Origin: Octopus vulgaris
Taxonomy: Eukaryota
DNA: 64,000 nucleotides
Assembly: GCA_951406725.2 (NCBI GenBank)
Contig: OX597814.1
Span: 112,778,001-112,842,000 of the forward strand
Direction: 5' to 3'
A model generated the notes under the pieces. The model was not told the origin of the DNA and ran no database searches. It was given only the letters and a program-made list of their open reading frames with translations. Of this stretch, positions 1 through 56,586 are shown piece after piece. How positions within the stretch are numbered: the first letter of the stretch is position 1; each line of letters opens with the position of its first letter. The translations under genes were made by a program, and so were the position numbers.

Positions 1-409
1 TTTGCTGCTATTTCAAGTAGTTCAAGCAACCACACCACGTACGGGGTTCGCTCTTTGTTTTTGTCGTTGCTTAGTCCCAGGTCATTCCAGACTGAATAAA
101 CTTAAATTCTAATTCCAACCATTCTAACCGTGACAATGCTGTAAATTTCTTTCGGGCAGTGTCTATACGACAAACCCACCACCACTACCACCACCTTCTT
201 ATGTATCGTTTGTTCTTTAAAAGAGAGAGGTGTGATTTGAGGAAAATTTTTCTCTTATTTCTAGCATGTCGAGCGAATATGACGAGGCACAAAAGAGCGG
301 GGCCCTTATCGTCTCGTTTGTACGTCTTTAGTTTCAGTTGGGGGGTGGGTCACAGCGAGAAGAGGAACCGGACACAACCAGAGCACGATCGTCACATCGT
401 ACTCTGGTT

Positions 410-1004
410 GTCGAGCTGGCAGAAACGTTAGCACGCCGGGCGAAATGCTTAGCAGTATTTCGTCTGCCGCTACGTTCTGAGTTCAAATTCCGCTGAGGTC
501 GACTTTGCCTTTCATCCTTTCGGAGTCGATTAAATAAGTACCAGTTACGCACTGGGGTCGATGTAATCGACTTAATCCCTTTGTCTGTCCTTGTTTGTCC
601 GCTCTGTGTTTAGCCCCTTGTGGGTAGTAAAGAAATATGTATTTCGTCTGCCGCTACGTTCTGAGTTCAAATTCCGCCAAGGTGAACTTTGCCTTTCATC
701 CCTTCGGAATCGATTAAATAAGTACCAGTTGTGCACTGGGGTCGATGTAATCGACTTAATCCCTTTGTCTGTTCTTGTTTGTCCGCTCTGTGTTTAGCTC
801 CTTGTGGGTAGTAGAGAAATATGTATTTCGTCTGCCGCTACGTTCTAAGTTCAAATTCCGCCGAGGTCGACTTTGCCTTTCATCCTTTCGGGGTCGATCA
901 AATAAGTACCAGTTACGCACTGGGGTCGATATAATCGACTTAATCCGTTTGTCTGTCCTTGTTTATCTCCCCTGTGTGTAGCCCCTTGTGGGCAGTAAAG
1001 AAAT
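410..1004 (+). mobile_element. tRNA-derived SINE family A, head-to-tail trimer (184-bp period)
   Basis: A-box-like AGCTGGCAGAA and B-box GAGTTCAAATTCC. Body GCCTTTCATCCTTTCGGGGTCGATAAA..AGTACCAG resembles the Meta/Sauria-SINE domain. Unit restarts at about 456, 640 and 824. Confidence 0.9.
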
Positions 1005-1446
1005 ATGGGCACGATCGTCATATAGCCTGCACTGTACATGTCCTTAAAACGTACGAACAGTTTCCAATACGCACATGTGGTAAACTTTAAACGGAATCTT
1101 TCCAAAACTAATTCGGTGGCCATCATTTTGTTTGTTTTCTTTCTTTTCCTCTCCTCCTCCTTCCCATTCTCCTCCACCTCCTACTGCTTCATCTCTGTTT
1201 ACATTCTTTTGCTTTGACCGCCATGTTTGTTACCTTCGTTTCTTCTTCCCTTGAATCAACATTATCATAAGCGAACCGTTAATATCAAACGTTTGCCTTT
1301 TGTGCCTGAGATCTAAGAATCTAAGAAGTTAACCTGTCTTAAAAGAAGATTATGTGTGTATGATGTGTGTGTATATGAATGTTTGTGCATATAGCTATAC
1401 GCGTATATATGTGTAAGCACATTATATACATATGTATATTTATATG

Positions 1447-1515
<69 letters not shown>

Positions 1516-1668
1516 GTATATGTACATATGTATATATATATACTCATATACATATATTGACAGAGAAGGAGAGGGTGAGTGAAAGAGACAGAGAGAAAGA
1601 AAACAAGAGTGTTAATAGATATATGCGCATATCTGTGCATATATGCAAATAAACGGATATATATAGAC

Positions 1669-1826
<158 letters not shown>

Positions 1827-1893
1827 TGTATGTATGTATGTATGTATGTATATATGCATGTAGATGTATGTAGACGTATGTATATTTGAATGC

Positions 1894-1931
<38 letters not shown>

Positions 1932-2104
1932 GCATACATATACAGACAAATAGATAAACATAATAGACACACTAACATCTAATTGTTTTGAGCGTAAAAT
2001 AAATACAAACCGTCTGTGAAAATGCGTTTGTTGTGGGCGTACATGAATATGTGTTTCTCCTTTATTCTAAATACGCACATGCATTTGTATATATGTGTAT
2101 GCGC

Positions 2105-2137
<33 letters not shown>

Positions 2138-2829
2138 CAAATTGAGATAGCGGTTGTGAGTGCAACCCACCATGGGATAACATATATCCAATATACTGCT
2201 AGTGAAGTACCCAACAAAGTTAATACATAAATGTTAATGATTGCGATGCAATCAATTCATTTACTGTATTATATGGGCAAAGGTAAAATTATTTACCACA
2301 AATTACTAATACAAGATAAGAAAATGGAGAAATACATCTAAATCAAATATCAATTACCAGATAATACTCAATCACATACTTTATTAAACCACCACATAAG
2401 AGACTGTAGGATTAGATATAAAAAGCAGAACAAATCAGTGTACATAAAGGAATGTACATAAAAAAGTGTACATAAAAAAGTAATGTTGTATAATAAGTAG
2501 AATATATATAAAAGAGAATATAAATATAAGTAAATATAAATATAGTTCTATTTAATCCTTATATAAACGCAATTATATTGTAATTATCCTAAGATTATCC
2601 AATAAACTCATTTTCTATCTAATGACTGACCACACGTAAATATCTCCATCTTATAAACTCCATGTGTCATACATCATGAATCAGTTATGGGATCAGCGAC
2701 TTACGCGTAACTCTGATTAGTCTCAGCGCATAATCTTGGGGCTCCAATAAATAGGCTCTTCCTGACTCCTGACTACGTACACACTCTCATACACAAATAC
2801 ATACGAACACACACACGCACACGACACGT

Positions 2830-3160
2830 CATCATCATCATCGTATAACGTCCATTTTCCGTGCTACAACGGGTTGGACGGTTCGACCGGGGTCTGGGAA
2901 AACAGGAGGCTGCACCAGGCTCCAGGGCGATCTGGCAGTTTTTCTACAGCTGGATGCCCTTCCTAACGCCAACCACTCCGTGAGTGTAGTGGGTGCTTTT
3001 TACGCGCCACCGGTACAGGTGCCAGGGGAGGCTGGCAGCGGCCACGATCGGTTGGTGCTTTTTACGTGCCACCGGCACGGAAGCCAGTCAAGGCGGCGCT
3101 GGCATCGGCCACGTTCGGATGGTGCTTTTTACGTGCCACCGGCACAGTTATCACAACTAC
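2830..3160. mobile_element. Dispersed repeat family D (retroposon-like, (CAT)n end, internal subrepeats)
   Basis: CTGGATGCCCTTCCTAACGCCAACCACT and a repeated GGTGCTTTTTACGTGCCACCGGCAC unit; homologous copies at 47465-47780 and 59836-60270. Confidence 0.75.
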
Positions 3161-4267
3161 AATTTCCATTTGATATTTATATAATTATATATAGATATAT
3201 ATACATATATAGACACGAACACGCACACACACACACAAATATATATATATATATATACATACATATATATAGACACACGTACATGCATATATATATATAC
3301 ATGCATATATATATAGAGAGAGAGAGACATGCACACACACATACACACATATACACACACACACACTATACTCGCACAGATACATATATATTCCACAATA
3401 ACATACTTCAGGGTACCTCTCAGCATGACTGTGTGTTTGTGCCTGTAAGCAGAGTCGGGTTTTTCAGAAGTTCTTTGTACTGCCATATGCTCCCAGGTTC
3501 AATACCACAATACCGCTGCAAGGCAATCGGGGACCATTGTACTTTACAATATCTCCAGGTTGTTCCAAAACATTGTCAATGAAATAGAGCAGACGGAATT
3601 GTTTGGAATTATTCTTTAAAGAGATTAAGGAATAATAAAGCCATAAATCTGGTATAGATACACGCGATGAGTGATCTTCTACTCTAGCTTGTTCCGTTAA
3701 AAAGCAGGGATCAACGAAATAAGTGTCGCATAAACAGAAGACCCGAACAGCACAATGGCATCCATTGTGATGGCGGCCATTTGTGTTAGGAAGTGTTGAC
3801 ATAAACACCTTACTATAAGATCGCTGAAGTCGGCAGACTTTTCACTTCTCACATGAGATGTTATGTGTGTGGTAGGGAGGGAAGTCAAAGGTTAGTATAC
3901 AGTCTAAACTCAATAATGACAGAGGGTAGATTTATATATAATACCATATCTATATTTACTCGGCGTTTGTTTACTGTCTGTTGTAATAAGTCTTATAGCC
4001 TGAAGAATGAATTGTCACGTGCCTATTATGGACTGTGAGTGGATAGCTATACATACATAAACACATACATACACATACTATGTATGTACATATGTATATG
4101 TGTATGATGCAAATGTTTGTATACGTGTGTGTGTGTATGTGTGTGTATACACATGTGTATGAATGTATATGTGTTATTACGTTTATAAGCACATAGATGT
4201 ACATATATCCGCATATGGTGTATACACACACATATATACATACTTATATGTATCTATAAACATGTCC

Positions 4268-36530: not shown

Positions 36531-37750
36531 GTTACATTTACTCAATAGTCAAGATAAAACTCTGAGTTTCAGATGCCGAAGTGGAAATCCACAACACCAT
36601 CTCTTCGGTTATCTGGCCATCTGAAAAACGCTATGAAAAAATACCGTTTTAGGCACAAGAACAAAAGAAAAGCGACAAAATTATCTAATCATATTTGGTC
36701 TTTAAAAGATAAAGGTGTCGATTATAACATCCATTGGAAGATTTTGGCCAAATGTAAGCCCTATACCAACGGCAGCGGAAGGTGCGGTCTATGCGACATG
36801 GAGAGATGGCTTATCTGGAAAAGCAGCTTAGACCCTACTACATGTCTAAACTCAAGGACAGAACTTTTCGGATCATGCCCATGTGTGACTAAATTTTTGT
36901 TACGTTTTTGGCCCCTAAAGAAAACAGATAGAACTTGCTTTCTATGTTATGTCCCAAAAAGTTTTTTATCTCATTATACCTTTTATTATTTCATATATTT
37001 TTATATTTTCACATATAATAATTTTTTCTGTACTTTTATATCCTGCATTTTTTCCTGTGCCTATATAGACGTGTATATAGATTCATTTATACACGTGTGT
37101 GAATATGTATGAGTGGGCAGTTTTAGATGTGTGCGTGTGTGCGTACATAAGAATGCACATATATATATAGACGTTTTTACTTAGTTTTTTTTTTTAAATT
37201 TGGGGGGGGGGCATATGTATATTCATTTTTTGTATATGCGTGTGTATGTATGCGTATATAAATATGTGCGGGTATGTACATATATGGGCGTGTGTATGTA
37301 TGAGTGCATAGGGGCATGTCCGTATATGAACGTGGTTTTTATGCTTTGTATACTTCCTTATGTTTTTTTCTGTTATCTTTAACCATGGTTTTTCTTGTGT
37401 TTGTGCGTATATAGACTTATGTATGAACTTTTACGGTACGCATGTGTGTGTGTATGAGGTTGTATATATATGCGTATATATTTGGCGAAAAATGCGAGTG
37501 AAGATGTGTACGTTTTCATAGTGACGTATAAGTACGCACGTGGGTTTCCCTTTATATAACGGTATTTTTTCATAGCGTTTTTTAGATGGCCAGATAACCG
37601 AAGAGATGGTGTTTTGGATTTCCACATCGGCATCTGAAACTCAGAGTTTTATCTTGACTATTGAGTAAATGTAACATATTATTTTATAGATAAATTTCCT
37701 CTATTTACATAATATTGAGGTCTCTTTCTTTTGTTATCTTAACGTTTTTA

Positions 37751-40022: not shown

Positions 40023-40259
40023 TCTTTTACTTGTTTCAGTCATTTGACTGTGGCTATGCTGGAGCACCGCTTTTAGTTGAACAAATCGGACCCAGGTCTT
40101 ATTCTTTGTAAGCCTAGTACTTATTCTATCGGTTCTCTTTTGCCGAACCGCTAAGTTACGGGGACGTAAACACACCAACATTGGTTGTCAATCGATGGTG
40201 AAGGGACAAAGACAGACACACAAACACACACACATATATATATACATATATATATATAT

Positions 40260-40320
<61 letters not shown>

Positions 40321-40324
<4 letters not shown>

Positions 40325-40997
40325 AAAAAAGCAACAAGAATGGATTAAAATCTCGGTACGATCGTTTCGTACGAGGACATCTTTAATAAGCTACAAAAAA
40401 TGCAGTGAATACAGATGGCTCGTACTCGAACTTATCTGCGATTCTTGTAAATTTCAATAACAATCTGTTCCTCTACACGATATGACAGTCACTTTGCTTT
40501 TACTCAGACTTTCCTTTACATGATAGGGCAGTCACTTTGCCTCTTACTCGGATTATCAGAAATTTTGCATGACTGTATCCGAAAATTTCTTCACACAACT
40601 TGATCAAATATTCAATATGAGCTATATGTAGACATGCATAAATTCTATAGGTTTAAAACCTTTCATCGGATCTCCATGAATCGAACTTTCTTCAATGCAG
40701 CTAATCTTACAACCTCTTTTGTATCTACCCCTTTTGATGTTTGGGAATTCTCTGATGTTTTTTCGGCTGAGGAGTACGAGCCATCTGTATTCACTGCATT
40801 TTTTGTAGCTTATTAAAGATGTCCTCGTACGAAACGATCGTACCGAGATTTTAATCCATTCTTGTTGCTTTTTTCCTATTTGTAATCACCCCACTTGTCG
40901 TATGGTTAACACCATATAGATTTCCGGTGCATCCTAGTTAAGGACCATATTCATGTGAATTCTTTAGAATTCACTAGAATCTCAATTACTTAACCGA

Positions 40998-40998
<1 letters not shown>
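40321..40998 (+). mobile_element. Young fold-back Penelope-like element
   Basis: Apparently perfect 107-bp inverted arms (40321-40427 and 40772-40878), tail 40879-40998, (TA)n flanks. Confidence 0.85.
40761..40848 (+). ncRNA. Type I hammerhead ribozyme, intact core
   Basis: UUUCGG-CUGAGGA-GUACGAG...CUCGUAC-GAAA-CGAUC-GUA-CCGAGA; 7-bp stem II, palindromic helix III ACGAUCGU, predicted cleavage after 40842. Confidence 0.85.
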
Positions 40999-41032
<34 letters not shown>

Positions 41033-41095
41033 TATGTGTGTGTGTGTGTGTGAGTGCATGTATATCTATATATGTATGTGTGTGCATATCCGTAG

Positions 41096-41135
<40 letters not shown>

Positions 41136-56373: not shown

Positions 56374-56586
56374 TTTATTATTGCGGCTGAAGAGAGCTTT
56401 AAACCATTTTTATATCAATAATACACTGCTGTAATAACAAATTGTTTATAAAGCTTGAAACACGTGTACCGTGATATCCTTTGTGTTTTGCTTTTAATTT
56501 ATATTTGATATATTCTCTCACCTCTGCCACTATCTGGCATATACAGGTGCTTACACTTATCAAAATTCACTCTAAATTTACAGTAC

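Follow-up and report, generated by a model that had tools for sequence, protein, structure and literature searches.

Structure of the insertion

The segment at 40320-40998 of the window, by which we mean the whole 64,000-nt stretch of Octopus vulgaris DNA analysed here, consists of a forward copy of a repeat end, a shorter inverted copy in front of it and a tail behind it, all set in TA-rich repeats (Table 1). The inverted repeat (40320-40427 against 40772-40879) is exact over 108 bp and its arms are separated by a non-palindromic spacer of 344 nt; an earlier sequence-only reading of 40321-40998 had described a perfect fold-back of 107 bp, and the extra pair sits in the TA flank. The inverted copy contains stem II, the GAAA, stem III, the cut site and the 3' strand of stem I of a hammerhead motif and, as that reading had noted, lacks the CUGA. 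All six frames of the copy at 40320-40998 are interrupted, and its position is wholly downstream of the stop of the element's ORF. The forward copy is a young family member, because it carries only four private changes in 570 nt, none of which occurs in the arms. The 3' region also contains internal duplications with periods of 43 nt and ~155 nt, about 72-87% alike (window 40468-40540; L002:1307-1506).

Table 1. Features of the insertion and its flanks, in positions of the window
Feature	Coordinates	Strand	Remarks
(TA)n target, left flank	40234..40322	.	most sister arms likewise adjoin (TA)n
Inverted 5'-truncated copy of the element end	40320..40427	-	begins at the tail-less end, site 1
Junction microhomology, 2-3 nt	40426..40428	.	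shared by arm and forward copy, as judged from the family bases before the forward start
Forward 5'-truncated copy	40426..40879	+	last ~453 nt of the non-coding 3' region/pLTR of a Hydra-type PLE, to site 1
Type I hammerhead motif of the pLTR	40761..40848	+	core 40767-73 and 40831-34; stem II 40774-40830; predicted cut after 40842
Palindromic stem III, 8 nt	40834..40841	+	predicted pairing between two RNA copies (dimer-type hammerhead)
Tail, ~118 nt	40880..40998	+	ends at site 2; full copies (L058, L059, L062) continue into the 5' UTR
(TA)n/(TG)n target, right flank	40998..41129	.	30/30 similarity-found loci end here, then TA-rich repeat

The element family and its protein

A similarity search of the octopus's own genome (2.8 Gb) with 40428-40998 as the query returned 1819 candidates, and the 40 scored ones were 97-100% identical. 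Thirty loci, the window copy included, were fetched on the basis of similarity and not of their flanks, and all have a common 3' end followed by TA-rich repeat. Longer copies carry a frame with GIY-YIG and RT upstream. In two of them (L058 and L059) an upstream pLTR with a hammerhead is followed by the tail of ~118 nt, by ~55 nt more of 5' UTR past site 2 and then by an intact ORF of 1072 aa, which motifs and homologues identify as an RT followed by a C-terminal GIY-YIG. The hammerhead-bearing pLTR lies upstream of the ORF in L058, L059 and L062 and at the 3' end in L032, L060, L061, L063 and L064.

The 1072-aa protein contains RWR at residue 37, DKT at 124, YRDD, a CxCX5C linker at 932-940, CxxC at 1029 and CxH at 1060; among homologues the N-terminal motif reads RWK, RWR or RWQ. 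Inspection of an alignment by eye showed no CCHH in the EN, the stretch from the GIY half to the YIG half being free of CxxC. The 27 homologues of the ORF are 633-769 aa long, and the extra length of the octopus protein is due to two asparagine-rich inserts (ORF L058:3457-6672; L059) that are missing in 8/9 aligned homologues, the remaining one (P0001) having a short insert. Scanning the ORF pieces and the full ORF against Pfam gave no families. A protein of Octopus sinensis annotated as an ankyrin-repeat protein (P0019) includes a piece 66% identical to the RT region, over 42% of the region searched, and its gene model likely took in a PLE copy.

Judged by these motifs, the element would belong to the Hydra clade of Penelope-like retrotransposons (PLEs), since it fits both the published definition and the published Hydra alignment rows. 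With the C-terminal EN+ PLEs of that clade, e.g. Hydra-1_Obim, it shares an RT followed by GIY-YIG, DKT, the CxCX5C linker, CxxC and CxH around the E and N of the EN, the absence of CCHH, a hammerhead in the 3' repeat, a (TA)n target and, less certainly, RW(K/R) (PMC8557442). It differs in size, with 1072 aa and more than 4 kb (owing to the N-rich inserts and a 3' region of ~1.3 kb) against elements under 3 kb and homologues of 633-769 aa, the 3-kb limit being a tendency and not a defining motif, and in its tail of ~118 nt against the usual 30-40 nt. The hammerhead sequence is unlike that of Hydra-1_Obim, which points to a different family (PMC8557442). A literature search confined to papers outside subscription found no published work on this PLE family, nor any on PLE inversions formed by two-sided priming.

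We conclude that 40320-40998 is very probably a Hydra-type Penelope-like retrotransposon inserted into (TA)n in 5'-truncated form, with a mirrored arm that likely arose as the element integrated. Published descriptions of PLEs (PMC8557442, in part) already include inverted copies with 5' truncation, tails on one side, (TA)n targets and hammerheads in the pLTR, and the locus is an ordinary one among over a hundred similar stumps. The sequence-only reading was right about the fold-back and the hammerhead and overlooked the PLE insertion to which both belong, with its standard inverted copy and tail.

Other classes of element were considered and excluded. PLEs of the Naiad/Chlamys type have an N-terminal EN and no canonical hammerhead, and here the EN lies at the C terminus and the element has a hammerhead. 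Non-LTR retrozymes are small non-coding tandem hammerhead units, and here there is a single unit, none of 150 site-2 loci is tandem and coding copies exist. A MITE or DNA transposon would have fixed terminal inverted repeats, and here a tail of ~118 nt lies outside the repeat and arm lengths range from 22 to 3845.

The hammerhead motif

The layout of the hammerhead at 40761-40848 is as had been claimed, complete and with an extended stem II, provided that 'intact' is read as motif-complete. Stem I is formed by 40761-66/40843-48, the core by CUGAGGA (40767-73) and GAAA (40831-34), stem II by 7 bp (40774-80/40824-30) with an extended loop and stem III by 40834-41, followed by GUA with the predicted cut after 40842. 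Rfam gave no matches at gathering over the whole window and, up to E 10 over 40300-41010, no hammerhead and one unrelated Lysine match at E 1.6. A pattern scan of both strands found the motif at 40761-40848 and one other hammerhead motif within the window. With the metazoan PLE hammerheads, as described in part in PMC4209133, the motif shares type I topology, a 7-bp helix II, the G10.1-C11.1 pair and a short palindromic helix III. Pairs of hammerhead motifs 100-700 bp apart on opposite strands were reported in the same paper in 2014 (PMC4209133).

In the predicted fold of the monomer, stems I and II pair at 0.85-0.93 and stem III at less than 0.01, and the active fold makes up ~0.5% of the ensemble, while the palindrome of stem III is predicted to form a self-duplex between two molecules at -12 kcal/mol. 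Among 260 stem III contexts, not fully de-duplicated and retrieved with anchors that favour conserved copies, CGATCG occurs in 170, CAATTG in 80 and CGATTG in 8, so that a subfamily (80/260) has preserved the palindrome through a double change. The motif is simply the ordinary pLTR ribozyme of the element, and on this prediction it would work only as a dimer or with the protein that the element encodes. A single metazoan PLE hammerhead motif gave no cleavage in vitro (PMC4209133), and an anole PLE hammerhead cleaved only with protein (PMC11167929), in the experiments covered by the sections consulted. That a transcript starting inside the fold-back would cleave after 40842, as had been expected, is doubtful, because the palindromic stem III points to a dimer-type ribozyme with only ~0.5% of the monomer in the active fold, and because the comparable PLE hammerheads in these papers are inactive singly or protein-dependent. 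In a presumed-RNA contig set, a 213-nt contig lies over the cut site and carries the family base at N7, not that of the window copy; contigs cannot show RNA ends.

Break position and census of sister insertions

The sequence-only reading placed the break of the inversion inside the catalytic core. This is possible, and with 2-3 nt of microhomology the position is ambiguous and may lie outside the core. At its end the arm agrees with the family sequence directly before the forward start over 2 nt, or over 3 nt if the template had C at N7; the window copy has a private G there, C is found in 29/29 family copies, and C accounts for about 96-97% of the depth in two contig sets, one presumed DNA and one of unrecorded kind. 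The strand switch can lie anywhere between the base of stem II (40774) and N7 (40771), and it need not cut the core, because the bases that end the arm also occur in the family sequence before the forward copy.

Sister insertions were sampled regardless of arm length from the first 100 of 331 exact TA-flanked site-1 ends and 150 of 286 exact TA-flanked site-2 ends. After removal of 23 duplicates and 9 loci that were edge-cut or too short, these 250 loci yielded 218 distinct insertions, of which 119 have an inverted arm, 97 are solo and 2 are of other kinds. The figure of 119 is a lower bound, because some copies counted as solo show tiny arms; site-1 inverted arms of only 10-15 nt are seen in L306, L307, L315, L319, L321 and L341.

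Measured from site 1, arm breaks lie between -22 and -3845, with a median of -196; the positions come from BLAST ends and may be a few bases out. Sister arms break anywhere: of the 119, 84 hold a complete mirror ribozyme and 1 stops in stem I, 5 have their break at -112..-105 and 29 stop 3' of the core. A break in the core had been taken as meaningful, and this scatter among genomic copies, with most arms keeping the whole mirror ribozyme, speaks against it. In the bin at -114..-105 there are 9 arm ends where 3.5 would be expected (p 0.01, or 0.027 with the window copy left out), and among 30 bins those at -164..-155 (8) and -184..-175 (7) are equally high; forward ends near the core (5 against 3.0 expected, p 0.19) are not in excess. 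A pattern search made separately from the census gave 7 TA-flanked stubs in the core region, 4/7 of them at -105..-109 and 3/7 already sampled. We rejected a hotspot at the core, since two other bins are as high and forward ends are not in excess, and what is left is a weak trend that may reflect a mild preference of arm ends for the core region. A hotspot at the cut site was likewise rejected, with 1/29 loci starting there among the first 100 of 229 matches listed; 4 of 26 near-symmetric junctions lie beside the cut site.

The two 3' ends are fixed, and an inversion combines one of each. Of 62 inversions picked by their site-1 end, 51 have a partner ending at site 2 and 1 has a partner ending at site 1, the other 10 being cut off or of other kinds; of 79 picked by their site-2 end, 71 have an arm that starts from site 1 and 1 has an arm that starts from site 2, the other 7 being cut off or of other kinds. 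Junction overlap of at least 1 nt was found in 82/119 inversions, a count from BLAST ends that is likely inflated.

Formation of mirrored insertions

How PLEs form inverted pLTRs and tails has been described as an open question (PMC8557442, in part). The published PLE units, as documented in Fig. 2 of PMC8557442 and for Adineta Pen2a_Av in the available sections of PMC3846280, share with ours a head-to-head inverted partial 5' copy with a tail at one end, junctions with microhomology and N-rich ORF inserts. The octopus data differ from these units in that 218 insertions were counted, that the pairing of tail-less with tailed ends is near-strict and that no TSD can be read in the (TA)n.

In the formation that we favour, each of the two cut target strands would serve as primer for a cDNA, begun on one strand at the tail-less start site and on the other at the tailed one, and the two truncated cDNAs would then likely be fused head to head by 2-3 nt of microhomology. 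The almost invariable combination of a tail-less with a tailed end fits such priming on both strands at two RT start sites. In vitro, a PLE protein was found to cut and extend both strands and to start RT at two sites bounding the tail (PMC11167929), and the mechanism described for Poseidon_Ac in the consulted sections of that paper shares with the octopus element two tail-bounding RT start sites, AT-rich targets and the cutting and extension of both strands, although Poseidon_Ac belongs to another clade and its hammerhead overlaps the ORF start, whereas here it ends ~205 nt upstream. Those sections contain no account of inverted copies. The start site in vitro was the same on both strands (PMC11167929), and because it did not differ between them, two-sided priming leaves the pairing of one site-1 with one site-2 end unexplained.

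The lengths of the two halves bear on an alternative. Of the 119 inversions, 63 have an arm that exceeds the forward copy by more than 15 nt, 30 have a shorter arm and 26 have halves within 15 nt of each other, the last figure being five-fold the permutation mean (5.1, maximum 15). These 26 near-equal junctions, some at palindromes, count against two-sided priming in that they also suit self-priming, or synthesis by fold-back, in which one template is copied as a hairpin, the origin put forward for Adineta Penelopes (PMC3846280, in part). For our insertions we consider such an origin of the arm unlikely, if still a serious contender. It would accommodate the correlation of arm and forward lengths (Spearman 0.48; 0.39 off the diagonal), the joining of L173 and L275 at palindromes and the finding that in L125, L129 and L179 the arm is of its partner's subfamily. 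Fold-back on the forward cDNA, however, cannot give 63/119 of the arms, because those arms exceed the forward copy by more than 15 nt; moreover, arms stop at site 1 without the tail being copied through (71/79), the window locus lies well away from the diagonal (arm -108, forward -453), and one RNA copied twice to its 5' end would account for the diagonal equally well.

This last version of two-sided priming, in which one PLE complex copies a single RNA twice, from two start sites and on two target strands, so that the junctions record RNA 5' ends, is offered tentatively and with more doubt than confidence. The excess of equal halves would follow from it, because both cDNAs could run off the 5' end of one RNA. 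If it were true, the equal-length excess, the weak excess of ends at the front of the core and the four near-symmetric junctions next to the cut site would be a record of transcription start and of hammerhead cleavage in vivo. Comparison of arms with partners left a shared template unsupported, with the arm nearer to its own partner than to any other copy in only 7/52 pairs (27 ties, 18 further; three segments were mis-extracted).

The family has the merit of a countable rule, one tail-less and one tailed end per two-part insertion, and of copies with an intact ORF, so that the rule is open to testing in vitro. The sequence TTTCCGGT occurs after both start sites (at about +42 and +28), each time behind a small hairpin (window 40921-40928; L059 past site 2), and is a possible start signal; the predicted folds of the hairpins behind the two start sites differ, with no clear twin.

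Fold-back RNA, age and assembly

It had been suggested that a read-through RNA would pair the arms and sequester the ribozyme. The thermodynamic half of this proposal holds in prediction, where the arms of the 40321-40880 RNA pair with a mean probability of 0.995 in a duplex of -191.7 kcal/mol and stem II falls to a probability of 0; its functional half finds no such support. Silencing by the fold-back in read-through RNA would be a by-product and not a selected lock. That read-through RNA serves as a functional cis-antisense lock on an active ribozyme, with the break in the core keeping the mirror copy inactive, is highly improbable, even granting the predicted pairing and the weak excess of arm ends near the core: only 5/119 inversions combine a whole forward hammerhead with an arm over the cut site but not the whole core, 84/119 arms keep the full mirror ribozyme, microhomology makes the core break itself ambiguous, the monomer is predicted to be almost inactive so that there would be little to lock, and no host exon is evident among the long ORFs of the window.

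The identity of the arms had also been read as a sign of recent insertion. It is uninformative, and we ruled out its use as a clock, since exact (100%) matches to the 107-nt arm occur at 39 other places in the genome, 21/52 pairs of arm and partner are identical over 80 nt and the private changes at this locus all lie outside the arms. The family as a whole is young, other copies being 97-99% identical.

An assembly or long-read fold-back artefact can be practically dismissed: no piece among those listed from three contig sets bridges the junction, and such structures do trouble assemblies (PMC8557442, in part), but short contigs break in high-copy repeats, TA flanks lie on both sides of a non-palindromic 344-nt spacer, and 119 separate inversions share the site-1/site-2 asymmetry, element-specific ends that artefacts would not be expected to have.

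Neighbouring and related elements

Further traces of such elements were seen nearby. The second hammerhead motif of the window, at 56384-56586, has a palindromic stem III and belongs to another high-copy family (1679 candidates); it is situated between (ATT)n and (TA)n, the copy begins at the front edge of the ribozyme, and four scored loci have an opposite-strand partial copy nearby. It is probably another PLE end. On the forward strand at 36558-37109, an open frame of 184 aa resembles the C-terminal endonuclease part of another Hydra-type PLE. Elsewhere in the genome, L036:1-5320 represents another PLE family, 41% identical in the endonuclease region and with an inverted repeat of its own of ~1450 bp, which adjoins a copy of the family found at 40320-40998.
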